Source of the DNA: an uncultured bacterium
GTDB lineage: Bacteria; Margulisbacteria; WOR-1; O2-12-FULL-45-9
Reading direction: 5' to 3'
DNA: 64,000 nt
NCBI GenBank assembly: GCA_964568455.1
Contig: CAZMPJ010000007.1
Span: 9,393-73,392, forward strand
Shown: one piece after another, positions 1 through 18,399 of the stretch
How positions within the stretch are numbered: the stretch's first letter is position 1
Layout: every line of letters starts with the position of its first letter
The notes under the pieces: generated by a model
What the model saw: the letters and a program-made list of their open reading frames with translations, nothing else
What the model was told of the DNA's origin: nothing
Database searches by the model: none
Translations under genes and position numbers: made by a program

Positions 1-320
1 AGCGTGAGTTTGTCAGAAGAGCGGGCTTTGTCTTAATTGCGGCAGCAGCTGTCCATCTTAAAAATTGGAAAGATGAAGATTTTATAGAGTATTTTCCTTT
101 GTTAAAAAAATATGCTACAGATGAGAGGAATTATGTTAAGAAGGCGATTAATTGGGCTTTGAGGCAGATTGGGAAGCGAAATTTAAAATTAAACGAAGAA
201 GCTTTGGCTCTGGCTCAACGAATTGGGAAAATAGATTTACAATCAGCTAAATGGATTGCTAAAGATGCGATCAGAGAGCTGAATCATCCTAAAGTTTTAA
301 AAAGGATTACAAAAAAATGA
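1..320 (+). CDS. DNA alkylation repair enzyme (AlkD/AlkC-like HEAT-repeat glycosylase), C-terminal part; the 5-prime end lies upstream of the window
   Basis: The frame is open from position 3 and translates to REFVRRAGFVLIAAAAVHLKNWKDEDF, then continues into the 99..320 ORF (ATDERNYVKKAINWALRQIGKRN). This conserved C-terminal motif is typical of the DNA alkylation repair protein family. Confidence 0.55.
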   Translation, partial: REFVRRAGFVLIAAAAVHLKNWKDEDFIEYFPLLKKYATDERNYVKKAINWALRQIGKRNLKLNEEALALAQRIGKIDLQSAKWIAKDAIRELNHPKVLKRITKK

Positions 321-1219
321 AAGAATTAATTATTATTGGTGGAGGGCCGGCTGGAATCACGGCTGCGGTTTATGCGGCCAGGAAGCGAATGGATTTTTGC
401 GTGATTACCAAAGATGTTGGAGGGCAAGCTGCCTTGTCGGGTGATATTGAAAATTATACTGGATTCCAGTTTATTACTGGTCCGGATTTAGCCCAAAAAT
501 TTAGAGAGCATTTGGAAAAGTATAAGTTTGAGCTTCAAGAAGGGGACGAGGTTAAAAAGGTTAAAAAAACCGATTTAGGATTTAAAGTTAAAACTACTTC
601 CGGAAAAGAGCTGGAAGCAAAAACTCTGATTGTGGCTTCTGGTAAAATCCCCCGCTTGTTAAACGCTAAGGGTGAGAAAGAGTTTAAAAATAAAGGCGTA
701 ACTTATTGCGCAACTTGTGATGGTCCTTTGTTTGCTAAAAAAGATGTGGCAGTAATCGGTGGGGGCAATTCTGCTTTGGATGCAGCGTTGCAAATGACTA
801 AAATTGCTAATAAAGTTTATGTGATTAATATTAATCAGGATTTTAGTGGTGACCAGGTCTTAAAAGATAAGGTTTTAGCGGCTAAAAATGTTGAAGTGTT
901 AAATAAAGCTAAAACGACTGAGTTTTTTGGGGATAAATTTCTAAAAGGCTTAAAAGTTGAGATTGCTGGAAAAGAAAAAACTATTAATGTTGAAGGGGTT
1001 TTTGTGGAAGTAGGCATGGTGCCTAATGCTTATTTTATTGATTTTGTGAAAAAAAACAAACGCGGTGAAATTATAATCAATTGCGCAGCACAAACTTCAA
1101 TTCCCGGCATCTTTGCTGCGGGAGACGTGACTGATGTGCCAGATAAGCAGATTGTAATTGCGGCTGGCGATGGTTCCAAAGCTGCGTTGGCTGCTTTCAA
1201 ATATTTATCAGTGCATTAA
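317..1219 (+). CDS. trxB: thioredoxin-disulfide reductase
   Basis: N-terminal FAD motif GGGPAGITAAVYAARK, redox-active CATCDG motif, NAD(P) motif GGGNSALD. The 300-aa length fits TrxB. Confidence 0.85.
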   Translation: MKELIIIGGGPAGITAAVYAARKRMDFCVITKDVGGQAALSGDIENYTGFQFITGPDLAQKFREHLEKYKFELQEGDEVKKVKKTDLGFKVKTTSGKELEAKTLIVASGKIPRLLNAKGEKEFKNKGVTYCATCDGPLFAKKDVAVIGGGNSALDAALQMTKIANKVYVININQDFSGDQVLKDKVLAAKNVEVLNKAKTTEFFGDKFLKGLKVEIAGKEKTINVEGVFVEVGMVPNAYFIDFVKKNKRGEIIINCAAQTSIPGIFAAGDVTDVPDKQIVIAAGDGSKAALAAFKYLSVH

Positions 1220-1229
1220 GATGCAATAA

Positions 1230-1760
1230 TTAGCCTTCTATGATCCAGCGTTCTTCTTTTTTAAACCAATCACCGGGATTATTTAAGTATTGCAGGGTAT
1301 CATCTAATATTTCATAGTGTTCTTGTTCTTCTTTGGCCAAGGCGGCAAAAAATTTCTTAGCGGTTTCATCCTGACTTTCTTTGGAAATGCGGTCATAAAG
1401 ATTGTAGCTATCTGTTTCCAGTCCTTCAGCAATTTTATAGGCCTCATTAATATCTTGTTCTGTTTTAAATTTTTTATCCAAGCTGGCCTTTAGCTTTAAT
1501 AGGATAGGTTTTAGTAGTTCTTCTTTTTTGGGTGATACTTCAACCCCTTTAAGCCAATCGCTTGGCAGTTTTTTATCCCCGGTTAATTGTTGGTGAAACT
1601 CTTTAATTTTTTCAATATGAATCAATTCTCTGTCTGCTAAGCTTTGTAGGGTGGAGGCGGCGAGGGGATTATTAGTCTTAAGCGTGGTTTGAGTGTAAAA
1701 GTCATAGCCTTTTTTTTCGAGTTCAATTGCAAGCTTTGTGTCGGCGATTAAATCCATCAT
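1230..1760 (-). CDS. ferritin-like diiron (rubrerythrin-family) domain protein
   Basis: 176 aa with paired E..EEQEHY-type helices (ELIHIEKIKEFH, EEQEHYEIL) typical of ferritin-like/rubrerythrin diiron domains. A GGAGG RBS precedes the start. Confidence 0.5.
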   Translation of the reverse strand: MMDLIADTKLAIELEKKGYDFYTQTTLKTNNPLAASTLQSLADRELIHIEKIKEFHQQLTGDKKLPSDWLKGVEVSPKKEELLKPILLKLKASLDKKFKTEQDINEAYKIAEGLETDSYNLYDRISKESQDETAKKFFAALAKEEQEHYEILDDTLQYLNNPGDWFKKEERWIIEG

Positions 1761-1860
1761 TATAGTTGTCCCTCCTTGCCATTATTTTTTATATCATATA
1801 TCATAACAAACATATAGAACTTGGCAAGCTTATTTATGGTATAAAAAGGAGGAAATAGAA

Positions 1861-2235
1861 ATGGCTAAATATTTAGGGGTTTATAAGTGTGAGATTTGCG
1901 GAAATATCGTAGAAGTGGTTCATGCTGGAGATGGAGAGTTGGTTTGCTGTGGACAGCCAATGAAATTAATGGTTGAAAATACAGTTGATGCGGCTAAAGA
2001 AAAACATATTCCAGTAATTGAAAAAACTGAGTGTGGAATTAAAGTTAAGGTTGGTTCTGTGGCCCATCCCATGGAAGCAAAACATTATATTGAATGGATT
2101 GAGGTTATTTCTGATGGTAAAGCTTATCGCGCTTTTTTAAAACCAGGAGATAAGCCAGAAGCTGAGTTTTGTGTGCCAAGTGAAAATGTAATAGTAAGAG
2201 CCTATTGTAATTTGCATGGGCTTTGGAAAGCGTAA
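1861..2235 (+). CDS. dfx: desulfoferrodoxin (2Fe superoxide reductase)
   Basis: N-terminal desulforedoxin motif CEICGN...CCGQPM followed by a neelaredoxin-type domain (HIPVIE...[13 protein letters not shown]...C..H). 124 aa. AGGAGG RBS. Confidence 0.9.
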
Positions 2236-2242
2236 ATAAAAA

Positions 2243-2752
2243 ATGCAGCTGGAAACTTTACATAAAGTTAGCTATGGGTTATATATTATAGCCGCGGTTA
2301 AAGAAGGGAAATTTAACGGCCAAATTGCTAACACGGTAATGCAGATTACTTCTGATCCGCCAACTGTTGCAATAAGCATTAATAAGCAAAATCTAACCCA
2401 TGAATATATTGAAAGCAGCAAGGGTTTTGCTGTTTCCATACTTGAAAAAGGTACGCCCATGACATTTATTGGTACTTTTGGTTTTAAATCTGGAAAAAAC
2501 ATAGATAAATTTAAAGATGTAAAGGTTAAAACAGCAAAAACAAAAGCGCCGATTGTGCTTGATTACAGTTTGGGTTACCTTGAATGTGAAGTAGTTGGCC
2601 AGCTAGATTGCGGCACCCATACTATATTTTTGGGAAAAGTTATTGGTGCGGAAATATTGAATTCTGCAGAGCCAATGACTTATGCTTATTATCATGATGT
2701 AAAACGCGGTAAGGCTCCGCCAACCGCGCCTACATATATTAAGGGGGAATAA
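2243..2752 (+). CDS. flavin reductase-like FMN-binding domain protein (candidate rubredoxin/FDP-associated reductase)
   Basis: 169 aa with the core motifs of the flavin reductase-like domain family (SVNS/ISINK...[11 protein letters not shown]...[10 protein letters not shown]). Sits between dfx and rubredoxin. Confidence 0.65.
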
Positions 2753-2754
2753 TT

Positions 2755-2919
2755 ATGGAAGAATATGTTTGCAAGGTTTGTGGTTATATCTATGATCCTA
2801 AAAAAGGCGATCCGGATAATGGGATAAAAGCAGGAACGGCTTTTGTTGATGTGCCAGAAGATTGGGTTTGTCCGATTTGCGGAGCAGATAAAAGCCAATT
2901 TGAAAAGAAAGGGGTTTAA
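2755..2919 (+). CDS. rd: rubredoxin
   Basis: Not in the supplied ORF track (below 60 aa). ATG at 2755 with GGGGG RBS. Translation [54 protein letters not shown] carries both CxxCG rubredoxin knuckles and the conserved YIYDP and DVPEDW motifs. Confidence 0.9.
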
Positions 2920-2922
2920 AAT

Positions 2923-4113
2923 TTGAAAGTCGAGGAACTGAAAAAAGATATTTATTATGTTGGGGCACTGGATGGAGGCAGAAAGCTTTTTGATGCGCTG
3001 ATTCCTCTTCCAGACGGGACTAGTTACAATTCTTATTTGATCAAAGGCAGTGAGAAAACTGTTTTAATTGACACGGTTGATCCGGCTAAAGAAAATGTGT
3101 TAATTAAAAATTTAAAAAAGCTTAAAATTGATAAGCTGGACTATATTATTTCCCAGCATTGCGAGCAGGATCATTCTGGCACTATTCCTACTATATTAAA
3201 ATTGTATAAAGATGCCAAAGTGATTACCAATGCCAAGAACAAAGAACTGCTCAAAGAACATTTGTTGATTTCTGAAGACAAGATTGTTGAAATTCAGGAT
3301 GGAGAAGAGCTTTCTTTGGGCAATAAAACCTTAAAATTTATCTTTACTCCTTGGGTGCATTGGCCAGAGACAATGTGTACTTATTTAAAAGAAGACAAAA
3401 TATTGTTTTCTTGCGATTTTTTTGGTTCACACATTGCTTTTACCGATCTTTTTGTAAAAGATAAAAAACATGTTTATGTTGCGGCGAAGAGATATTATGC
3501 GGAAATCATGATGCCTTTTCGTACGGTAATTAAAAGCAACCTTAAAAAAGTTGAAGCTTTGGAGATTGATCTGATTGCTCCTAGTCATGGTTCATTACAT
3601 AATGAGCCTTCTTTTATTATGGATGCTTATCGAGATTGGACTAGTGATAAGGTAAAAAATGAAGTCGTGATCCCTTATGTTTCTATGCATGGTAGCGTGG
3701 CTAAGATGGTTGAGTATCTGGTTAAAGCTTTAGAAGAGAAGGGGATTGTTGTTAAAGCTTTTAATTTAGCTCAGATGGATTTAGGGGAGCTAGCCATGGC
3801 GTTGGTTGATGCGGCTACGGTAGTTATTGCTACGCCAACGGTTTTGGTTCGTCCGCATCCTTTAGCCGTATATGCAGCTTATTTAACCAATGCTTTAAGA
3901 CCTAAAACCAGGTTTGCTTCTATTGTGGGGTCGTATGGGTGGGGTGGTAAGATGCCGGAAGAGATTAAAGGTTTAATTTCAAATTTAAAGGTCGAATTGA
4001 TTGAGCCGGTGATTGCCAAAGGTTATCCCAAAGAAGCTGATTTTAAAGCTTTGGACGAGTTAGCGGAAAAAATAAAAAACAAACACAAAGAGGGGGAAAT
4101 AAATAATGGGTAA
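2923..4113 (+). CDS. fprA: flavodiiron protein (rubredoxin:oxygen/NO oxidoreductase, FprA/ROO type)
   Basis: TTG start. N-terminal metallo-beta-lactamase-like diiron domain (HCEQDHSG) plus C-terminal flavodoxin-like domain. 396 aa. Confidence 0.85.
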   Translation: MKVEELKKDIYYVGALDGGRKLFDALIPLPDGTSYNSYLIKGSEKTVLIDTVDPAKENVLIKNLKKLKIDKLDYIISQHCEQDHSGTIPTILKLYKDAKVITNAKNKELLKEHLLISEDKIVEIQDGEELSLGNKTLKFIFTPWVHWPETMCTYLKEDKILFSCDFFGSHIAFTDLFVKDKKHVYVAAKRYYAEIMMPFRTVIKSNLKKVEALEIDLIAPSHGSLHNEPSFIMDAYRDWTSDKVKNEVVIPYVSMHGSVAKMVEYLVKALEEKGIVVKAFNLAQMDLGELAMALVDAATVVIATPTVLVRPHPLAVYAAYLTNALRPKTRFASIVGSYGWGGKMPEEIKGLISNLKVELIEPVIAKGYPKEADFKALDELAEKIKNKHKEGEINNG

Positions 4114-4684
4114 AAGTGTAAAAGGGACACAAACGGAGAAGAACTTATTAAAGGCGTTTGCAGGGGAGTCGCAAGCAAGGAATAGGTATACTTATTTTGC
4201 TTCGGTGGCTAAAAAAGCAGGATATGAGCAGGTTGCAGCTATATTTTTAGAAACTGCTGAAAACGAAAAAGAACACGCTAAAAGGTTTTTTAAATATTTA
4301 GAAGGTGGGGCAGTTGAAATTGTTGCAGCTTATCCAGCTGGAACCATTAGTTCAACTGAAGAAAATTTAAAGGCCTCGGCTGATGGAGAAAATGAAGAAT
4401 GGACCAAGCTTTATGCTGATTTTGAAAAAGTTGCGCGGGATGAGGGGTTAGAAGAGATTGCTGTCCAATTTAAGGAAATTGCCGAAGTAGAAGAGGAGCA
4501 TGAGAAAAGATATCGAAAATTATTAAAAAATATTAAAGAGAAGAAAGTTTTTAAACGAGATGAAAAAGTAAAATGGCATTGTAGAAATTGTGGTTATGTA
4601 CATGAGGGAACAGAAGCTCCCAAAATGTGTCCAGCTTGCAAACATCCGCAAGCTTATTATGAAATATTAGCAGAGAATTATTAA
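4106..4684 (+). CDS. rbr: rubrerythrin
   Basis: Ferritin-like diiron domain (ENEKEHAKRF, EEEHEKRY) plus a C-terminal rubredoxin-like CRNCGY...CPAC domain. 192 aa. Confidence 0.9.
   Translation: MGKSVKGTQTEKNLLKAFAGESQARNRYTYFASVAKKAGYEQVAAIFLETAENEKEHAKRFFKYLEGGAVEIVAAYPAGTISSTEENLKASADGENEEWTKLYADFEKVARDEGLEEIAVQFKEIAEVEEEHEKRYRKLLKNIKEKKVFKRDEKVKWHCRNCGYVHEGTEAPKMCPACKHPQAYYEILAENY
4638..4683 (+). repeat. left copy of a 46-bp imperfect direct repeat (3-prime end of rbr); the partner copy is at 6929..6974
   Basis: gcaaacatccgcaagcttattatgaaatattagcagagaattatta here versus gcaaacattcgcaggctcattatgaaatattagcagagaattatta at 6929..6974 (43 of 46 identical). Weaker similarity extends about 8 nt further upstream. 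Confidence 0.85.
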
Positions 4685-4757
4685 TAATTAAACGCAAGTT
4701 TTTGCCTCTTTAATACGATAAATTATATAGAGTCTTTGAGCTATGGAATAGCCTAAT

Positions 4758-6848
4758 ATGAGTTTGCAAGTAAACCAAGTAATTGCCAATAGAGCGCCTA
4801 ATAAACCAGAGAAAAGATCAGCTGGTCGCGCTGAATTAGTTCCTAAGCAAAAAACTGATACTGTACAGTTGAGCAATAATACAACTGTTATTGAAAGCAA
4901 GTTTGGCCCCTTATCTCTCCAAGAAAAATCTTTTGTCGGTCAATTTGAAAGTGGTTTGGTTTATGATTTTACCCAAAAAGTAAAATCAAAAAAAGAATTA
5001 CTTTGCCGACTTAAGGCTCTTCAGCCATTGTTGGCAAAAATTAATAAAAGAAAAAAAGATTTTGATAAGCATATACTTTATGACTTATACGGTAATGAGG
5101 CTTTATGGAAAATATCCGCATTAACTCCAGAAAAAATTAGTCAGTGGCAAGGTTCTGTGTGGATAGATAGTATTTTGTCTGGAAATGCAATTATGCTTTT
5201 GAAAATCCAAAAAAAATATGATAACAACATAAATCTGGCCGATTCTAAACTTATATCTGATCTCGACCAAAAACTGCCTTTTAATGTTTTGTTGTTTTTT
5301 GTTGAGCACTCCGAGACTTATGACGAGCTTATGGGTAATTTGCAAAAATTATCAAATTTATATAATAAAGAGAAGCTGTTTTTTGAGCAAGCAAAGAAAA
5401 GGTGTGTGGATTATTTTGGCAAAGTGGTTGAATATGTGTCTTCCCCTCTGGAATTTTTGAGTGAGATAGGTAAATTAACAAAATTTTCCAAAGACAATAA
5501 ACCCTTGATTGCGAATTTAACTAAGAAAAAAATAGATCTGGGTTATTTTTGGGAAAAATCAAAAACAGTTGGCGAGTTTCGTAGGCGACTGTTAAGTCTC
5601 AATAGTTTTTTGGATTTAGTTCGTTTGAAAGAAGAATCTAAAATAAAGGGTTTATGGGTCAATTCGTCTTCAGATTATGTTGGTTTGGACAGGAACCCAT
5701 TTGATATTCTTTTGTGTGCTCCTAATGTTTTAGGTGCCGAAAAGCTTTTGGGAATTTCTGGTTTAGGGGAAAAGGCTCAATCAGTTTATTTAGATGCTGT
5801 TTCTGATGCTGGTAAAACTTATGCAAAAATCATGAAGCAATCTTTGCGCAATATTAGCAACAATGATTTTAAGAAAATAATGATATTGCCTGGAATGAGA
5901 GTAATTGTGACTGAGGATATAGCTCCTTTATTAAATAATCCTTGTTACTTAAATTATCTAAGGAAAAAATATCCAAACCTTGGTTTGAAAAAAGCTTTTT
6001 CAATGACAATTGCGTTTAAGCGCAACTTAAAGGCTATGGGTGTCGCAGACGAAGAAGTTTTGGGATTAAACGAAGAAAAAATAGATTTATGTTTTTCTGA
6101 AATGATGGCGGCTAATAATTATGTTTTTGGTCTTGATATGGTAGGTTCAGGTATTAATGTGATGGTTATTACGGCTGACCCGGAAAATAATGGTATTGGT
6201 GATTGGCACTTTGATGAGATTGTAAATTATGCGAAAAAATATGGTTCAAATATTGTTTTCGCCAAAAAAGGAGCTGGTCCGGACAAAACTAAGTTTTTAG
6301 AAACAGTAAGGATGGCTAAGGGACCCACTAGAATTTTCATTCTGGGGCATGGTAGTGGAAGTGCGATTACGTGTGGTAAAGGAGAAGATATTTCTTATCA
6401 GGAATTAATGGCTGCAGTATCGCAAAATGAGAATCCACAAAATATTATAATTGTAACAGATTGTTGTAATGCGTATGAATTTTATACTAATTTTGAGGGA
6501 AATTACCCTCAAGATATCCTTATGCCGATTGTAATTGGTTTAGGCGGAAATAAGGGGATGCTTTCTTATGAGTTTGGAAGGAGTTATAACTTCAAAGGGA
6601 GTAAGGTAGGGGATTTTTACGCTTTTTTTGAAAAAGACTTTTTTAAAGCGGTAATGTGTGAAAAAGGGGCAAATTTAGACGCTTTTATTCGTCTTGATTG
6701 GCGTTATATTTATAAAAAAATTGACTTGATAGATTTGTTCGAGACACTTAGGCATCCTCAAAAAAAACAGCAGAAAAATGAAAAGGATGTTCGCGATATT
6801 CGTATGGAAGTTAAGAAAACATCTTCTTTTATGTCTCCCCTTGTTTAA
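4758..6848 (+). CDS. large hypothetical protein (696 aa) with a C-terminal clan-CD caspase/legumain-like cysteine peptidase-like domain; N-terminal 450 aa unrecognised
   Basis: A long ORF, intact across a region that is partly very AT-rich. The C-terminal region NVMVITAD...RIFILGHGSGS...(38 aa)...IIIVTDCCNAYEF has the strand-His-Gly ... strand-Asp-Cys arrangement and His-to-Cys spacing of clan CD peptidases. No signal peptide or TM segment. The N-terminal roughly 50 aa are polar and look disordered. Confidence 0.5.
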   Translation: MSLQVNQVIANRAPNKPEKRSAGRAELVPKQKTDTVQLSNNTTVIESKFGPLSLQEKSFVGQFESGLVYDFTQKVKSKKELLCRLKALQPLLAKINKRKKDFDKHILYDLYGNEALWKISALTPEKISQWQGSVWIDSILSGNAIMLLKIQKKYDNNINLADSKLISDLDQKLPFNVLLFFVEHSETYDELMGNLQKLSNLYNKEKLFFEQAKKRCVDYFGKVVEYVSSPLEFLSEIGKLTKFSKDNKPLIANLTKKKIDLGYFWEKSKTVGEFRRRLLSLNSFLDLVRLKEESKIKGLWVNSSSDYVGLDRNPFDILLCAPNVLGAEKLLGISGLGEKAQSVYLDAVSDAGKTYAKIMKQSLRNISNNDFKKIMILPGMRVIVTEDIAPLLNNPCYLNYLRKKYPNLGLKKAFSMTIAFKRNLKAMGVADEEVLGLNEEKIDLCFSEMMAANNYVFGLDMVGSGINVMVITADPENNGIGDWHFDEIVNYAKKYGSNIVFAKKGAGPDKTKFLETVRMAKGPTRIFILGHGSGSAITCGKGEDISYQELMAAVSQNENPQNIIIVTDCCNAYEFYTNFEGNYPQDILMPIVIGLGGNKGMLSYEFGRSYNFKGSKVGDFYAFFEKDFFKAVMCEKGANLDAFIRLDWRYIYKKIDLIDLFETLRHPQKKQQKNEKDVRDIRMEVKKTSSFMSPLV

Positions 6849-6928
6849 CCTGTGATATAATTCAAACAATTAAGATTTTTTTTGGGGGGGGGTATGGATA
6901 ACTCGATCTTTAGTAACGTGCTCAGACC

Positions 6929-6974
6929 GCAAACATTCGCAGGCTCATTATGAAATATTAGCAGAGAATTATTA
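6929..6974 (+). repeat. right copy of the 46-bp direct repeat; a decayed, non-coding remnant of the rbr 3-prime end (reads ...AHYEILAENY*)
   Basis: See the left copy at 4638..4683. The 2291-bp unit between the copies holds only the 4758..6848 ORF. Confidence 0.85.
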
Positions 6975-6991
6975 GTTAAGGGGTTTAGATA

Positions 6992-7408
6992 ATGGCATTT
7001 TTCTTTGCTTTGGTGACGGCTTTATTGTGGGGTATAGCTCCCGTGTTAGAAAAAGCGGGGTTGCGAGGTAATATTGACCCCTTAGTTGCTGTGGTCATTC
7101 GTAGTTTAACAATTTCTTTTGTGGGTCTTCTAACTATGTTGATGCTTAACCGTTTGCCGCAGTTTTCACAAATTTCAATTAAGAATGTAATGCTTATTTT
7201 GCTTGGTGGTTTAATTGCTGGTTTTTTTGCTCAATGGACTTATTATCATGCTTTAAAAATGGGGCAGGCCTCAACTGTTGTTCCAGTAGCAGCAATTTAT
7301 CCTCTAGTTGCCTTGTTTTTATCAGTGCTTTTTCTTGGTGAGTCAATTACTTGGCTAAGATTGGTTGGCGTTGTTTTAGTGGTTGCGGGTGTAATTTTAA
7401 TTAGATAG
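6992..7408 (+). CDS. EamA-like (DMT superfamily) small membrane transporter, 4 TMS
   Basis: 138 aa, four hydrophobic helices, WGIAPVLEKAG and ALFLGE motifs typical of EamA half-transporters. Confidence 0.55.
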   Translation: MAFFFALVTALLWGIAPVLEKAGLRGNIDPLVAVVIRSLTISFVGLLTMLMLNRLPQFSQISIKNVMLILLGGLIAGFFAQWTYYHALKMGQASTVVPVAAIYPLVALFLSVLFLGESITWLRLVGVVLVVAGVILIR

Positions 7409-7418
7409 GGAGTAAGTC

Positions 7419-8462
7419 ATGGCGAAAGATTCTGTTTGTGATGCTTGTGGGGCAAAATCAAAAAGTAAATGGTGGAAAAACAAACTATTTCTAATCTTTT
7501 GTCTTTATGTATTGGTTTTTATTGGAGTAAGATATGTAAATTTTTTAAAACCATTACAAGAATCTCTATTTATGTATTTAGGAACCATTGCGGTGCCAAT
7601 CTTGCTTGGTTTATTTATTGGTGGGGTTATTGATTGGCTTATTCCGGGTGAATATATTTCTGCTTTATTGGCGCCCAAAAGAAAGAGAACCATTATCTAT
7701 TCAGTTATAACTGGTTTTTTTATGTCAGCTTGTAGTCATGGGATTTTGGCTTTGGCAATACAGCTGCATAAAAAAGGAGCTTCTCCTCCAGCGGTAGTAG
7801 CTTTTCTTCTTTCTAGTCCTTGGGCTAATCTGCCTCTCACTATATTAATGTTTGGTTTCTTTGGTGTTAGGGCTTTGTTTATCATTATATCTGCGGTGAT
7901 AATCGCCATAATTACTGGTTATATTTATATGTTTTTAGAAAGCAGGAATTGGATAGAAAAAAACCCTAATACAATTAAATTAGATAGTGATTTTTCTGTA
8001 ATAGATGATGCCAAAGTGAGATTGAAAAAAGTAAAAATATCTTTTACTAATAGCTTAAATGCTATAAAAGCTATTTGGAGTGGAAGTGTATCATTAGCCA
8101 ATATGGTTCTTTGGTGGATAATGTTTGGTGTGTTTTTAGCTAGTTTGGCTGCTGCATATTTGCCTGCAGATTTTATGCATCAATATATGGGGGCAACAAT
8201 TTTAGGTTTATTGATTACGCTTTTAATTGCCACGGTTATTGAGATTTGTTCAGAGGGTAGCGCGCCTTTAGCTTTTGAAATTTATCGCCAGACAGGCGCG
8301 CTAGGAAATTCTTTTACTTTTTTAATGGCTGGAGTGGTGACTGATTATACGGAAATAGGGCTTATCTGGCAAAACATTGGCTGGCGCACCGCAGTTTGGC
8401 TCCCGATTATAACTGTTCCCCAAGTTATTATTTTGGCGATTTTAGCTAATATGTTTTTATAA
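7419..8462 (+). CDS. predicted permease, DUF318/COG0701 (ArsP-like) family
   Basis: 347 aa polytopic membrane protein with an N-terminal CDACG stretch, GGVIDWLIPGE and MSACSHG motifs reminiscent of the ArsP/DUF318 permease family. Confidence 0.45.
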   Translation: MAKDSVCDACGAKSKSKWWKNKLFLIFCLYVLVFIGVRYVNFLKPLQESLFMYLGTIAVPILLGLFIGGVIDWLIPGEYISALLAPKRKRTIIYSVITGFFMSACSHGILALAIQLHKKGASPPAVVAFLLSSPWANLPLTILMFGFFGVRALFIIISAVIIAIITGYIYMFLESRNWIEKNPNTIKLDSDFSVIDDAKVRLKKVKISFTNSLNAIKAIWSGSVSLANMVLWWIMFGVFLASLAAAYLPADFMHQYMGATILGLLITLLIATVIEICSEGSAPLAFEIYRQTGALGNSFTFLMAGVVTDYTEIGLIWQNIGWRTAVWLPIITVPQVIILAILANMFL

Positions 8463-8476
8463 GGAGGTGGAAAGAT

Positions 8477-8782
8477 ATGATGTATGGCGGAATGGGTTAT
8501 GGAGTGGTTTTTGGATCACTGCTTGGTGTTTTGTTGCTGCTGGGCTTTGCTTATATTGTTGGGGCCCTTGCTAGTAAAGAAAGTGGCACAAATAAAACTG
8601 TTGGTCAGGTTATTGCTGCGGTAATTGCTATTATGGCAGTGATTATTCTTTTATACGGCACACTTTATGGTGGGGTGATGGGCAAGGGGGCCTGGTGCAA
8701 AAAAAGCAGATATAGTAAAAAGAAAATGATGATGATGAAGAAGGATATGATGCAAAAGCATATGGATAAGCTGGAAAAGTAG
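8477..8782 (+). CDS. small membrane protein with two TM helices and a Lys/Met-rich tail
   Basis: 101 aa. Two hydrophobic helices then KKSRYSKKKMMMMKKDMMQKHMDKLEK. GGAGG RBS. Confidence 0.4.
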   Translation: MMYGGMGYGVVFGSLLGVLLLLGFAYIVGALASKESGTNKTVGQVIAAVIAIMAVIILLYGTLYGGVMGKGAWCKKSRYSKKKMMMMKKDMMQKHMDKLEK

Positions 8783-8807
8783 TTAGACTTCACAGGTAAA
8801 AGTTGTT

Positions 8808-8833
8808 AAGCCCTATAATAAAAAATAGGGCTT
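8808..8833 (+). terminator. perfect 9-bp-stem hairpin (aagccctat/atagggctt) downstream of the 8477..8782 gene; its right arm overlaps the -35 box of the next promoter
   Basis: Inverted repeat read directly from the sequence. No clear U-tract follows, so terminator function is uncertain. Confidence 0.3.
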
Positions 8834-8859
8834 GACAAATATCTTAAATAGGTATAATA
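8832..8859 (+). promoter_or_regulatory. sigma70-like promoter (TTGACA-16nt-TATAAT) for the Rrf2-hcp operon; a 12-bp perfect palindrome ATATGTACATAT at 8857-8868 overlaps the predicted TSS and start codon
   Basis: Consensus -35 at 8832-8837 and -10 at 8854-8859. The ATG at 8870 is only about 10 nt downstream, which implies a leaderless or near-leaderless transcript. Confidence 0.45.
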
Positions 8860-8869
8860 TGTACATATT

Positions 8870-9265
8870 ATGAAAATAACAAGAGCATCAGATTTTGCGA
8901 TTCGTTTGTTGGTTCATTTAGCGTCGAAAGGTGGAGAGGGGACCAGTCAAGAACTTGCCAAAGAAATTAATGTTTCTTTTAATCATTTGGCAAAACTGGT
9001 TCCGATTTTAGCCAGGCACGGGTTTATTATTACCCAAAAAGGAAAAGGAGGCGGCATACGCTTAGCCAGGAATCCCAGGAAAATCGATTTGGCTGAAGTA
9101 ATTGAGGCAATTGAGGGTCCGCTTGTAATTAGTGATTGTATCTTCCATAAAAGTTCTTGCCGATTTAGTAAGGAATGCAAAGCCAGGAAGTGTTTGAATA
9201 AGGTTCGCAAAGGAATGTTAAAGGTTTTGTCTAACACAACAGTTAAAGAGTTAGTAGCAAATTAA
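8870..9265 (+). CDS. Rrf2-family transcriptional regulator with an Fe-S cluster-binding Cys motif (NsrR/IscR-like)
   Basis: N-terminal wHTH typical of Rrf2 (ASDFAIRLLVHLA...ELAKEINVSFNHLAKLV), GGG(I)RLAR motif, and C-x6-C-x5-C-x4-C near the C-terminus. Lies directly upstream of hcp. Confidence 0.85.
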   Translation: MKITRASDFAIRLLVHLASKGGEGTSQELAKEINVSFNHLAKLVPILARHGFIITQKGKGGGIRLARNPRKIDLAEVIEAIEGPLVISDCIFHKSSCRFSKECKARKCLNKVRKGMLKVLSNTTVKELVAN

Positions 9266-9287
9266 AATAGAAAGGAGGTGGAAAAAT

Positions 9288-9587
9288 ATGAATCTTGAAG
9301 AACTCAATGTTTTCTTAGAAGCAAACCCAGCCGTAGAGTGGACACAGGATGACGATGGTAATTTGTATTTTCGTCATGCTAATTTTGGTGCGGAAAATGA
9401 AAAGATAAAAGTAGAGCCCAAAGCATTAGAAAAGCTTACCGCAGAGAAGTTAGAAAAGGTTTTAATCGGTGGCAGAAATATTGACCATATTACTCGTGTT
9501 ACTGGTTACTTTTCCAGAGTTTCTGGATGGAACAAAGGTAAGCGTGGAGAGTTAAAAGATAGAGAGCGTGTAAAAGTACATGGTTAA
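9288..9587 (+). CDS. small protein resembling the C-terminal glycyl-radical segment of class III ribonucleotide reductase NrdD (autonomous glycyl-radical-like mini-protein)
   Basis: 99 aa. The C-terminus ITRVTGYFSRVSGWNKGKRGELKDRERVKVHG parallels the NrdD C-terminus (R-x-C-G-Y-L-G...N-x-G-K...E-V...R-V-K-H). No Cys residues. GGAGG RBS. Its 3-prime end overlaps the next gene by 8 nt. Confidence 0.4.
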   Translation: MNLEELNVFLEANPAVEWTQDDDGNLYFRHANFGAENEKIKVEPKALEKLTAEKLEKVLIGGRNIDHITRVTGYFSRVSGWNKGKRGELKDRERVKVHG

Positions 9588-10275
9588 ACGTAAGATTATA
9601 AAAATAGACGAAGATAAGTGTGATGGGTGCGGACAATGTGTTTCTGCTTGTGCCGAGGGTGCTCTCCAAATAGTAAATGGGAAAGCAAAGTTGGTTAGCG
9701 ATATCTATTGTGACGGCCTAGGAGCTTGCATTGGAGAGTGCCCTCAAGACGCAATTAGTTTTGAGGAAAGAGAAGCAAAAGAATTTAGCGAAAAAGCAGT
9801 GAAAGAGAGGGAAAAGCAAATGTCTGGATGTCCGGGGGCAAAGGTTGTGGAATTTTCTAAGGAAGAAGGTAAGGCCGAAGAGGGAAAAAGATCCTCACAG
9901 CTTAGGCAGTGGCCAATTCAGCTGCATTTAGTTCCTCCTTCTGCTCCTTATTTCAAAGGGGCAGATGTGTTGCTAGCGGCAGATTGTGTGGCTTTTTCTT
10001 TGGGAGATTTTCATAAAGATTATTTAAAAGGAAAAAGCTTAGCTATTGCTTGTCCAAAACTAGATAGCGATCAAGAGATTTACATAGAAAAAATTAAATC
10101 ATTGATTGATGACGCTAAAATTAATACTTTGACTGTGATGATTATGCAGGTCCCATGTTGTGGTGGCTTATTACAAATTGCAAAAACTGCGGCAACAAAA
10201 GCCTCAAGAAAAATTCCGATTAAGGTGATTGTAATTGGTTTGAATGGAGATGTTCTAAAAGAAGAATGGGTATAG
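9580..10275 (+). CDS. ferredoxin-like 4Fe-4S-binding domain protein with a C-terminal domain of unknown function (PCCGG motif)
   Basis: CDGCGQCVSAC (C-x2-C-x2-C-x3-C) and a second CDGLGACIGECP motif in the N-terminal 60 aa, then roughly 170 aa unrecognised. Translationally coupled to the upstream mini-protein and followed by hcp. Confidence 0.6.
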   Translation: MVKRKIIKIDEDKCDGCGQCVSACAEGALQIVNGKAKLVSDIYCDGLGACIGECPQDAISFEEREAKEFSEKAVKEREKQMSGCPGAKVVEFSKEEGKAEEGKRSSQLRQWPIQLHLVPPSAPYFKGADVLLAADCVAFSLGDFHKDYLKGKSLAIACPKLDSDQEIYIEKIKSLIDDAKINTLTVMIMQVPCCGGLLQIAKTAATKASRKIPIKVIVIGLNGDVLKEEWV

Positions 10276-10305
10276 CTTATATAATAATGAAAGGAAAAAG
10301 ATAAA

Positions 10306-11943
10306 ATGAGTATGTTTTGTGATCAATGTCAGGAAACGGTAAAGAATAAGGGTTGTACAGTAGCTGGAGTCTGTGGAAAAAATGAGGAAGTGGCTAATTT
10401 ACAGGATTTAATCTTATACCTGCTTAAAGGAATTGGATATTTGGCCTACAACTTAAGGCAGCAGGGAGAGGTAGATGAAAAAACTGACCGCTTTATTTTA
10501 GAGGCACTTTTTATTACGATTACCAATGTCAATTTTGATTCAAAGAAAATGATTCAAATTGTAGAAAAAGCTTTGGCCATAAGAGACGAATTAAAAACTA
10601 AACTTAAAGCCAAAAACTTGCCTGAATCAGTATTGTGGCATCCTGATAATGGCAAAAAAAGTTATCTTAATAAAGCAGCTCAGGTTGGTTTCTTATCTAT
10701 TGAAGACGCGGATTTGCGTTCTTTAGTGGCAATCTTAATTTATGGATTAAAAGGTTTGGTTGCTTATGCTGACCATGCTTTAATTCTGGGGAAAAAAGAT
10801 CCAGTCATATTTGAGTTTATTGAAAAAACATTAGCTTATCTGGCTGGAAAAAATCTGGAAAGCGAACAATTATTAGCCTTGATTTTAGAAACAGGTCAAA
10901 TGGGAGTTAAAACCATGGCTCTGCTTGATGGTGCTAATACTACAAAATATGGTAATCCAGAAATTACTGAAGTAAATACTGGAGTAGAGTCAAAGCCAGC
11001 GATTTTGGTCAGTGGCCATGATTTATTGGATTTAGAAGAAATATTGATTCAAAGCGAAGGAAAAGAAATCAATGTTTATACTCACGGGGAAATGTTGCCA
11101 GCCAACGCTTATCCAGAGTTAAAAAAATATAAGCATTTAAAAGGAAATTATGGTAGCTCCTGGTATAACCAGCAAAAAGAATTTGATGGATTTGGCGGCG
11201 CGATTGTTATGACTACTAACTGTTTGCAAAAACCAAAAAATTCTTATGAAGACCGTATTTTTACTACTGGTTTAGTAGGTTGGCCTGGAATTAGTCATAT
11301 TGCCAATCGACAAGCGGGTAAGTCGAAGAATTTTAGCTCGGTAATTGAAAAAGCTTTGTTGCTTGGTCCAATTGACGCAAAAGCAGGCAAAAAGATTGTC
11401 ATTGGTTTTGCCCACGGAACATTACTAGGAGTAGCGGATAAGATTATTAGCGCGGTTAAAAGCGGTAAGATAAAAAGATTTTTTGTGATGGCCGGTTGTG
11501 ACGGGCGCAGCAAAGAAAGAGAATATTTTACCCAATTAGCAGAAAAGCTTCCGGCAGACACGGTGATTTTAACTGCCGGCTGTGCCAAGTATCGCTATAA
11601 CCTGTTGGATTTAGGTCAAATTGACGGCATTCCCAGGGTAATTGATGCTGGCCAATGTAATGATTCTTATTCCTTAGTAGTTGTTGCTTTAAAGCTGGCT
11701 GAAATCTTTAAGGTTAAAGATGTAAATGATTTACCGATTTCATTTGATATTGCCTGGTATGAGCAAAAGGCAGTCTTGGTTTTATTAGCTTTGCTTTCTT
11801 TAGGCGTAAAGAATATTCGTTTAGGCCCAACTTTGCCGGCCTTTGTTTCCCCTTCAGTCTTAAATGTGTTGGTTGATAAATTTAATTTAAAGCCAACGCA
11901 AGAAGTAGAAAAGGATATAGAATTAATGCTTCAAGGAAAATGA
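10306..11943 (+). CDS. hcp: hybrid cluster protein (hydroxylamine reductase / prismane)
   Basis: N-terminal CDQCQET...C...C Cys motif. 545 aa. Conserved hybrid-cluster ligand regions (VSGHD, MAGCDG, GQCNDSYS). Confidence 0.92.
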   Translation: MSMFCDQCQETVKNKGCTVAGVCGKNEEVANLQDLILYLLKGIGYLAYNLRQQGEVDEKTDRFILEALFITITNVNFDSKKMIQIVEKALAIRDELKTKLKAKNLPESVLWHPDNGKKSYLNKAAQVGFLSIEDADLRSLVAILIYGLKGLVAYADHALILGKKDPVIFEFIEKTLAYLAGKNLESEQLLALILETGQMGVKTMALLDGANTTKYGNPEITEVNTGVESKPAILVSGHDLLDLEEILIQSEGKEINVYTHGEMLPANAYPELKKYKHLKGNYGSSWYNQQKEFDGFGGAIVMTTNCLQKPKNSYEDRIFTTGLVGWPGISHIANRQAGKSKNFSSVIEKALLLGPIDAKAGKKIVIGFAHGTLLGVADKIISAVKSGKIKRFFVMAGCDGRSKEREYFTQLAEKLPADTVILTAGCAKYRYNLLDLGQIDGIPRVIDAGQCNDSYSLVVVALKLAEIFKVKDVNDLPISFDIAWYEQKAVLVLLALLSLGVKNIRLGPTLPAFVSPSVLNVLVDKFNLKPTQEVEKDIELMLQGK

Positions 11944-11944
11944 G

Positions 11945-12334
11945 ATGAAAAATGAGTTGCTGCGGGAGATGGAAAAATATTTTGGCAAAGATACTAAGCG
12001 GATTAATCATGCGCGTAAAGTATTGTCTTACGCAGAAGAAAAATTAGAGATAGATGGGGTTGACGAGCAAATTGTTATTGCCTCCGCGATCCTGCATGAT
12101 ATTGGCATTCATGCGGCAGAAAGAAAATATAATTCAAATGCTGGACAATATCAGGAAGTAGAGGGGCCGCCGATTGCTAAAAGAATCTTAGAAAAGATCA
12201 ATTTTCCTAAAGAGAAAATAAAGGAAGTTTTAGATATTATTGCTCACCATCATTCACCAGGGATTATAACAACCAAAAACTTTGATGTTTTGTTTGAAGC
12301 TGATTGTCGAGTTAATCGTGAAGAGTCTTCTTAA
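11945..12334 (+). CDS. HD-domain phosphohydrolase-like protein
   Basis: 129 aa with HD metal-binding signature ILHDIG...HHHS. Confidence 0.65.
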   Translation: MKNELLREMEKYFGKDTKRINHARKVLSYAEEKLEIDGVDEQIVIASAILHDIGIHAAERKYNSNAGQYQEVEGPPIAKRILEKINFPKEKIKEVLDIIAHHHSPGIITTKNFDVLFEADCRVNREESS

Positions 12335-17525: not shown

Positions 17526-17539
17526 TATAATCAATTATA

Positions 17540-17627
17540 TTAAGGGGTGCCCAAAATAGATTGGGCTGAGATCCTGCCGGAGGCGGGAAACCCGTAGAAC
17601 CTGATCAGGTTAAAACCTGCGGAGGGA
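17540..17627 (+). promoter_or_regulatory. TPP (THI-box) riboswitch
   Basis: GGGGUGCCC...CUGAGA...ACCCGUAGAACCUGAUCAGGUUAAAACCUGCGGAGGGAG matches the conserved THI element (CUGAGA and ACCUGAUCUGGUUAAUACCAGCGUAGGGA-type 3-prime half). The 3-prime GGAGGGAG doubles as the thiG RBS. Confidence 0.85.
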
Positions 17628-17634
17628 GAAAAAA

Positions 17635-18399
17635 ATGACTTTAAAGATAGCTGATAAAACTTTTAATTCCCGCTTATTTATTGGTACTGGCAAATTTCCT
17701 TCTAACCAAATCTTAAAACAAGCCTTGATTGCCGCGGAAACTGAAATGGTTACTGTTTCTTTGCGCAGAGTTGATTTTGATTCCAAGCAAGAAGATGTTT
17801 TAGATGCAGTTGATAGAAAAAAATATTTATTGCTTCCTAATACCTCTGGGGCTAGAACTGCGGAAGAGGCGGTTAGATTAGCTAAGCTGGCCAAGGCTGC
17901 TGGAGCGGGAAACTGGGTTAAGCTTGAGGTGACGCCTGATCCTAATTACATGTTGCCCGATCCAATTGAGACTTTAAAAGCAGCAGAAACCTTGGTTAAG
18001 CAAGGTTTCGTAGTTCTTCCTTATATTAATGCTGATCCTGTTTTAGCCAAACACTTAGAAGAGGTGGGGACGGCAACGGTTATGCCGCTTGGTTCACCTA
18101 TTGGCTCTCATCAAGGAATTAGAACCAAAGAGGCCATTCAAATTATTATTGAACAAGCCAATATTCCGGTGGTGGTGGATGCGGGGATTGGAATACCGTC
18201 GCATGCTGCGCAAGCTATGGAAATGGGAGCGGATGCTGTTTTAGTTAACACGGCTATTGCCATTGCTGCTGATCCAGTAAAAATGGCCGAGGCTTTTAAG
18301 TTAGCTGTTCGTGCTGGCCGCCAAGCTTATGAGGTAGGTATTAAATTTCCTCAAAAACAAGCTAGTGCTTCAAGCCCTTTAACTGGTTTCTTGCGATGA
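17635..18399 (+). CDS. thiG: thiazole synthase
   Basis: 254 aa. LFIGTGKF and [13 protein letters not shown]. Directly downstream of the TPP riboswitch. Confidence 0.9.

Follow-up and report, generated by a model that had tools for sequence, protein, structure and literature searches.

What kind of protein is encoded by the lone open reading frame P0001, which lies within an oxidative-stress gene cluster of an uncultured marine bacterium, and how did its gene come to be there? The window, that is, the whole stretch of 64,000 nucleotides that was analysed, is chromosomal DNA. A reading made from the sequence alone had placed an ORF of 696 aa at positions 4758..6848 (plus strand, to which all coordinates below refer) and had ascribed to its product a C-terminal fold of clan CD, like that of caspases and legumain. 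The ORF was confirmed exactly, with an ATG start and a GC content of 33.8%, as compared with 37.9% for the window. Proteases of clan CD drive cell-death and immune cascades in animals, in plants and, as was shown recently, in bacteria.

P0001 did not give a significant match in Pfam, NCBIfam, PADLOC, PHROGs or among the PDB sequences (phmmer), and its similarity to Fe-ADH (E 0.016-0.09) was rejected as a generic beta-alpha-beta resemblance. A word-indexed search of 5.8 billion proteins returned P0001 itself and one relative, P0002, with 47-48% identity to P0001. The samples in which P0001 was seen, on 15 contigs or more, come from JGI, ENA, Logan and NCBI and include the marine ones JGI 3300007755 and 3300009008. 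When 1.84 billion cluster representatives were scanned exhaustively by HMMER with a two-sequence profile, 12 clusters in total were found. The alignment of one of their members, P0003, to P0001 begins at aa 235, and nine members align solely over the C-terminal ~250-300 residues. Where these proteins are named in their sources, all of them are called 'hypothetical protein', and no Pfam domain was detected in any of them except P0008, whose N-terminal part contains a HEAT repeat. The source of P0010 is Ca. Peregrinibacteria. Export signals are present in P0012 (a signal peptide) and P0006. A search of genome contigs did not reveal relatives of the P0001 protein.

The N-terminus of P0001 (aa 1-38, 4758..4871) is polar, as had been noticed before, and probably disordered; it was modelled at a pLDDT below 50 and has no hydrophobic segment. 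The following all-alpha domain (aa 40-360, 4875..5837) is the fastest-diverging part of the protein (~38% identity, dN ~0.55). Next comes a helical subdomain (aa 372-460, 5871..6137) with the motif AFS-x3-A-x2-R, which is the most constrained segment of P0001 (72% identity between the two closest alleles, dN/dS 0.11), and then the peptidase core of the clan CD (caspase-hemoglobinase) type with strands beta1-beta5 (aa 461-605, 6138..6572), assigned by the AlphaFold model and Foldseek. No signal peptide or transmembrane segment was found in P0001 (maximum KD19 1.45), in agreement with the earlier statement that a secretion signal is missing. The description of the N-terminal 450 aa as an orphan region held for aa 40-360, for which neither structure nor sequence searches detected relatives beyond P0002 and, in part, P0003, but not for aa 372-460, which are conserved across most of the family. 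To call the N-terminal domain a sensor is a conjecture. A CARD-like nature of aa 372-460 was considered and rejected, as the resemblance to the NLRP1 CARD was weak (E ~0.3) and did not improve when the segment was searched alone. A death-fold domain N-terminal to the protease, as in the fusions of CARD or other death-fold domains with caspases, was not found.

When the full-length protein was modelled by AlphaFold with two sequences, the C-terminal half was modelled poorly, and the domain model described here rests on the alignment of 12 sequences. The model of aa 372-671 had a pLDDT of 72.4 and a pTM of 0.72, with values of 80-96 in the core. Its elements follow in the order beta1 (467-472), alpha1, beta2 (498-504), alpha2, beta3 (524-529) and His531, and then two short strands, alpha3, beta4 (563-569), Cys570, alpha4 and beta5 (591-596), while the region beyond aa 605, in which beta6 and alpha5 are expected, was modelled at low confidence. 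Proteins of clan CD have a central six-stranded sheet of 2-1-3-4-5-6 topology with five flanking helices, a catalytic His on loop L3, a catalytic Cys on loop L4 and a small sheet between beta3 and alpha3 (PMC4357240). We counted the six-stranded 2-1-3-4-5-6 sheet as present in P0001, with beta6 and alpha5 at low confidence, and in the predicted structure the His and the Cys fall on the loops after beta3 and beta4, respectively. The top 50 Foldseek matches of the model were all clan CD proteins (best E 3.7e-4), and the structural matches include 8tl0, Raptor (5wbi) and c-FLIP (3h13). The element order of the model, the Foldseek matches and the register of His and Cys agree with each other, which upholds the clan CD fold proposed for the C-terminal part, and the structural comparison that had been suggested as its check thus revealed similarity to the caspase fold.

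The three motifs on which that proposal was based were located in the translation at about the spacings given for them: NVMVITAD (aa 467-474), then, about 57 aa further, RIFILGHGSGS, and, after another 39 aa, IIIVTDCCNAYEF, in which C569 and C570 are encoded by codons 6462-6467. The putative catalytic His is His531, followed by Gly532 (6348..6353, His codon CAT at 6348-6350), on L3 after beta3, and the putative nucleophile is Cys570 (6465..6467) on L4 after beta4. In the alignment of the C-terminal domains, a Cys occupies the position of C570 in 12/12 sequences and a His that of H531 in 11/12, P0012 being the exception; the Gly after the His is present in all 12, and the residue that precedes the Cys is small (A/S/C/T/G) in all 12 as well. 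Thus, the dyad is conserved across the homologues and carries the Gly and the small residue typical of clan CD. The 'strand-DC' motif named in the sequence-only reading has to be corrected: D568 and C569 vary across the family (the closest homologue has SSC), and the invariant residue is C570, so that the motif is better written as strand-x-(small)-C. A third family motif, phi-phi-[ST]-[AS]-[AS]-N-K (consensus ...ISxANK), follows the strand after the Cys; in P0001 it comprises Asn598-Lys599 after beta5 (6549..6554), a candidate element of the S1 pocket, for which E476 on L1 is a further candidate. P0012, which has no His and carries a signal peptide, counts against an active, cytoplasmic nature of all members.

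Which of the characterised clan CD families is the nearest to P0001? The profile of the whole C-terminal domain gave PIGK as its top match in the PDB (E 0.037), and the three best matches of the core profile among 177,635 PDB sequences were all Gpi8/PIGK (E 0.0038, 0.0061 and 0.014); legumain was not retrieved in this core-profile search. The Gpi8/PIGK alignment spans the region from the strand before His-Gly through the helix after the Cys in catalytic register, and, by count along the alignment, the family His and Cys fall on H164 and C206 of PIGK. The comparison with Pfam profiles of C13, C14 and CHAT by HMMER, which had also been proposed as a check, gave no match for P0001: PF01650 (Peptidase_C13) was not matched at E up to 10, the gathering threshold not being reached, and was matched by one of the 12 family members at E 0.054, while Peptidase_C14 and CHAT were matched neither by P0001 nor by the other members. 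By sequence, the nearest characterised family would therefore appear to be C13 (Gpi8/PIGK) rather than CHAT or C14, although the similarity is marginal (E ~4e-3), and the family may at best be a distant relative of C13. The curated cut-offs of C13, C14 and CHAT are not reached, and we regard the family as a new one of clan CD. P0001 founds a very rare and unannotated clan CD family.

Among known enzymes, those nearest to P0001 by sequence would be the C13 enzymes, namely Gpi8/PIGK, to which the catalytic segment is marginally similar with His and Cys in register, and legumain. P0001 differs from them in falling below the PF01650 threshold, in having neither a signal peptide nor an endoplasmic reticulum or lysosomal context, and in lacking the C-terminal LSAM prodomain, in place of which it has an orphan N-terminal alpha domain and a helical subdomain; moreover, it is bacterial, cytoplasmic and horizontally mobile. 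Its likeness to the C14 enzymes (caspases, metacaspases, paracaspases and orthocaspases) is structural only, with no Pfam match. The additional strands beta7 and beta8 of metacaspases are not apparent in the model, and a cleavage motif of the p20/p10 linker is not identifiable in P0001. The CHAT proteases (TPR-CHAT/Craspase and SAVED-CHAT), type IV Thoeris and gasdermin effectors belong to multi-gene systems, whose partners are CRISPR type III, a TIR signal producer and a gasdermin substrate. In contrast, P0001 has no conserved partner gene, no match to the CHAT Pfam profile and no PADLOC match.

How the gene came to its place could be traced by comparison with related genomes. P0001 is bracketed by a direct repeat of 60 nt, whose copies are 85% identical, with the last 32 nt fully identical, and are spaced by 2291 bp. 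The upstream copy (4624..4683) is the true 3' end of a rubrerythrin gene (4106-4684), and the downstream copy (6915..6974) is a remnant of that 3' end which lies outside its proper context and is collinear with the EamA gene. In the sister genome L001, the rubrerythrin gene directly abuts EamA, which represents an empty site, and positions 6929-8458 of the window align to positions 5413-6924 of L001. The homologue of that genome, P0002, sits elsewhere, between ArsP and Rrf2, where it replaces ~370 nt that in the window hold a 101-aa ORF. In an outgroup genome, ArsP is followed by a homologue of the 101-aa ORF (E 1e-9), and there is no caspase-fold gene. The idea that the 101-aa ORF is a relic of a former P0001-type copy was rejected; it encodes a conserved small membrane protein. 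A third slot, in a metK / ychF-rpsF context, is occupied by P0003 in L008, a genome of 48-54% GC, in which the gene lies inside a trough of 37-40% GC. In L008, 21-nt inverted repeats surround the P0003 copy.

The 2.3-kb insert of the window holds P0001 as its sole ORF, and neither a transposase, an integrase nor terminal inverted repeats accompany this copy. The features of classical mobile elements (an IS or transposon, an integron cassette or an integrative island), to which a short target-site duplication or an attC site would also belong, were not found; the duplication is 60 nt long and the leader of the gene does not fold. A shared 3'-end motif was not found among the three cassettes. 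The 3' flank of the window cassette contains a T8G9 homopolymer tract (6876..6892). The junction sequence, including this tract, is identical in five independent assemblies, and the insert is therefore not an assembly artefact. The view that the gene stands alone on an inserted cassette was borne out by the direct repeat, the empty site of L001, the three different slots and the GC trough of L008, with no recognised mobile element associated with it. The P0001 gene does not belong to the core genome.

The gene does not travel alone but with a leader (4694..4757), of which positions 4694-4756 are identical at 62/63 nt to the leader of P0002 in L001; under the neutral rate of the backbone, such identity has a probability of P = 4e-11, and it does not extend into the coding sequence, breaking off at the ATG. 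The 5' half of the leader could be recognised upstream of P0003 in L008 (local score 40 versus 15.9 +/- 2.5 for shuffled sequences), but not upstream of more distant family members. Among metagenome contigs, its pattern was found in the L008 contig only, and it had no match in viral contigs. The leader contains a mini-ORF of 2 codons (ATG GAA TAG), a weak 5-bp hairpin and, by eye, a plausible TTGCCT-16-TATATA promoter, which was not among the calls of the automatic scan. A riboswitch or other structured RNA was rejected, as the leader was less stable than its shuffles (z +2.2) and had no Rfam match, and so was an operator shared by a stress regulon, as a second copy is absent from the window. 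The leader is probably the gene's own promoter or operator and could possibly also serve as a homology anchor for allele exchange.

The alleles of the window and of L001 diverged far more than the genes around them. Backbone genes of the two genomes are 87-95% identical in protein and 85-90% identical in nucleotide sequence, as compared with 48% and 64%, respectively, for P0001 and P0002. The corresponding values of dN are 0.02-0.05 and 0.45, those of dS (NG86) 0.50-0.75 and about 1.66, and those of dN/dS 0.03-0.08 and 0.27. When four-fold sites were compared at identical amino acids only, 200/567 differed in the backbone and 58/93 between P0001 and P0002 (Fisher p 1.1e-6). Silent sites have diverged 2.8 times as far between the alleles as in the backbone, so that the alleles are ~2.8 times older than the split of the host genomes. 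This pattern of substitutions indicates that at least one of the two alleles must have been imported or replaced. At the available resolution, there was no sign of positive selection between them.

To what extent does the neighbourhood hint at a function? Of the window ORFs, 20 were profiled against Pfam. The oxidative-stress cluster around P0001 encodes a thioredoxin-reductase-like protein, rubrerythrin, desulfoferrodoxin, flavin reductase, rubredoxin, an FprA-type flavodiiron protein and a second rubrerythrin. Downstream of P0001 lie genes of EamA, an ArsP-type permease, the 101-aa membrane ORF, Rrf2, a 4Fe-4S protein and Hcp, and the profiled ORFs farther away encode tetrapyrrole (TP_methylase/HEM4), sulfite-reductase-type, Cys/Met-metabolism, MetH-type and TilS proteins; an OEP-family outer-membrane efflux protein is also among the profiled ORFs, and the window contains a TPP riboswitch and a tRNA-Met. 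Secretion-system genes were not found among the 20 profiled ORFs. Neither a conserved partner gene, across the contexts of nine family members, nor a defence island or phage, toxin or defence neighbours, in the loci retrieved, were detected. The nearest species representative, which has 66% identity over the permease, is a MAG of Candidatus Margulisiibacteriota, and in metagenomes the host organism is seen as an apparently free-living clonal population. Both Margulisiibacteriota-type copies of the gene are located in one and the same oxidative-stress cluster of ~5 kb, and this location could mean a physiological link rather than a conflict.

What, then, is the function of P0001? In our judgement, it is quite likely an active, site-specific cysteine endopeptidase or transpeptidase, a three-part cytoplasmic protein of clan CD. 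An active cysteine peptidase is the best reading because the clan CD fold is combined with an intact, conserved dyad under purifying selection. The helical N-terminal part would select the substrate or hold the enzyme inactive until a trigger binds, and cleavage would occur after a defined P1 residue, with Cys570 attacking the scissile bond and His531 assisting. Strict P1 specificity is a mark of clan CD peptidases. Through horizontal transfer or recombination, leader and gene together have come to occupy different intergenic slots in genomes that are otherwise collinear. This mobility and the relaxed, old allelic divergence suggest an accessory, possibly conflict-related role. Caspase-fold pseudo-enzymes do exist and appear among the structural matches as Raptor and c-FLIP, and P0012 has lost its His, as if P0001 could be a catalytically inert scaffold as well. 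Yet the retention of the His in 11/12 and the Cys in 12/12 sequences, together with the Gly and small-residue signature, at ~20-30% identity is hard to explain without catalysis, and we consider such a pseudo-protease improbable.

A conflict-related role could mean that P0001 is a single-gene anti-phage or abortive-infection protein, whose helical domain senses a phage product and frees the caspase-like domain to cleave essential host or phage proteins. Bacterial immunity is known to employ caspase-like effectors, as in type IV Thoeris, in gasdermin systems and in SAVED-CHAT. The accessory nature and horizontal movement of the gene, its deeply diverged alleles within a conserved backbone, a helical module (HEAT-like in P0008) joined to a caspase-fold effector, and the presence of 8tl0 among the structural matches would all fit this role. 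However, no PADLOC model matches P0001, the loci retrieved contain no defence island and no defence, phage or toxin neighbours, P0001 has no STAND NTPase, SAVED, TIR or other known sensor module, its dN/dS of 0.27 gives no sign of positive selection, and its family is extremely rare, which most defence genes are not; a defence function is thus unlikely. The location of both Margulisiibacteriota-type copies, in different slots, in the cluster of SOR, rubredoxin, FprA, two rubrerythrins, Rrf2 and Hcp, and the redox sensitivity that a thiol protease would inherently have, point instead to a physiological regulatory protease of the oxidative-stress/redox regulon, which might degrade a regulator or damaged proteins and be retained for co-regulation. 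This we find rather unlikely, as P0003 and other relatives are not beside redox genes, the outgroup genome does not have the gene, and P0001 is preceded by its own conserved leader, not by operon continuity, with a motif that occurs once in the window and hence is no operator common to the stress genes. Finally, P0001 could act on a cell other than its own, be it that of a eukaryotic host or of a bacterial competitor, as a secreted or injected effector or toxin, exported non-classically by means of its polar, disordered N-terminus. Relatives occur in Ca. Peregrinibacteria, and the phylum Margulisiibacteriota includes Termititenacia, lineages in which symbiotic lifestyles are known; moreover, the C13-like affinity of the family is to a mainly eukaryotic group, and P0012 and P0006 carry export signals. 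Such a role is nevertheless very doubtful for a protein with no signal peptide, with no secretion-system genes among the 20 profiled ORFs of the window and in an organism that is apparently free-living and clonal in metagenomes.

With an active cysteine peptidase as the preferred reading, a bolder interpretation may be put forward, to which we give little credence at present. Leader and gene would form a self-contained, horizontally exchanged cassette of a new kind for a stand-alone conflict sensor-protease acting in immunity or addiction; the leader would be at the same time the promoter or operator and the homology anchor for swapping divergent alleles, and the protease would have branched off in bacteria from the Gpi8/legumain lineage, its N-terminal domain being without precedent.

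P0001 adds to clan CD an extremely rare, previously unannotated lineage (12 clusters in 1.84 billion representatives), which is found in poorly known phyla, Margulisiibacteriota-related and Ca. Peregrinibacteria, is closest to the C13 enzymes, most of which are eukaryotic, and has an N-terminal module that is novel. The genetic behaviour is unusual as well: a lone gene shifts slots with a near-invariant leader, while substitutions in the coding sequence have reached saturation. Should the role be defensive, P0001 would represent an immune protein of the caspase type that needs a single gene; otherwise, H531 and C570 would provide a defined target in the search for a new protease specificity or a transpeptidase tool comparable to the legumain-type ligases.

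The caspase-fold gene is preceded by a leader of 63 nt (window 4694-4757) that is matched at 62 of 63 positions in front of its closest homologue in the sister genome L001 (6933-6996), even though the coding sequences of the gene in the two genomes are only 64% identical. The 5' half of this leader was found again upstream of the homologue P0003 in an unrelated, higher-GC genome, L008 (approximately 7953-7990), where the C-terminal domain of the protein encoded behind it is just ~32% identical. Within the 63 nt lie a mini-ORF of two codons (ATG GAA TAG) and a hairpin, GCTAT-GGA-ATAGC; as RNA, the leader is unstructured. It is unique in the window, which contains no second copy.

The P0003 copy is located in a trough of 37-40% GC, surrounded by L008 DNA of 48-54% GC, and is flanked by 21-nt inverted repeats (7683-7703 and 9920-9940; also 7772-7789 and 9880-9937) composed of AAATTCTAA / TTAGAATTT units that are duplicated on either side of it. 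These repeats may be MITE-like or represent a recombination boundary. Inverted repeats of this kind are absent at the window copy of the gene. On the 3' side of the latter, a T8G9 homopolymer tract (window 6876-6892) lies between the stop codon and the relic repeat, ~100 nt upstream of EamA, and is unchanged across five independent assemblies. The matching 3' flank of L001 contains a C5TTA7 tract, which resembles the inverse orientation of T8G9, a similarity that is not significant.

In L001, the gene occupies the place of a 101-aa ORF that has been deleted from that genome, and that in the window (8477-8782) follows the ArsP-type permease gene. The N-terminal half of its product is hydrophobic and the tail is Met/Lys-rich (KKKMMMMKKDMMQKHMDKLEK). 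It has no Pfam family, and a homologue (46% identity, E 1e-9) adjoins the permease gene of a Margulisiibacteriota MAG. The product may be a small, metal-related membrane protein that partners the permease.

Oxidative- and nitrosative-stress genes of the host, apparently an anaerobe, are densely clustered in window 1-12000. They encode a thioredoxin-reductase-like protein, two rubrerythrins, desulfoferrodoxin (annotated as a shorter, 91-aa product in the L004 assembly), flavin reductase, a 54-aa rubredoxin, an FprA-type flavodiiron protein, an Rrf2 regulator, a 99-aa NrdD-like fragment, a 4Fe-4S protein, a hybrid-cluster protein, and an HD protein. Further along, a TPP riboswitch (17533-17644; Rfam RF00059, 76.9 bits) directly precedes a run of + strand ORFs.

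At L018 9908-16640 (GCA_016186205.1, Ca. Peregrinibacteria), the family member P0010 is followed by two giant ORFs of 1078 and 1156 aa on the opposite strand, neither with a Pfam match. On the P0005 contig, likewise, the ORFs are all orphans, 628 and 691 aa in length. The distant family member P0012 lacks the catalytic His, with GSGSGDG where GHG is expected, so that one family member is possibly non-catalytic. The clear Sec-type signal peptide of P0012, together with a hydrophobic anchor at the N-terminus of P0006, also a distant member, means that the family has exported members.
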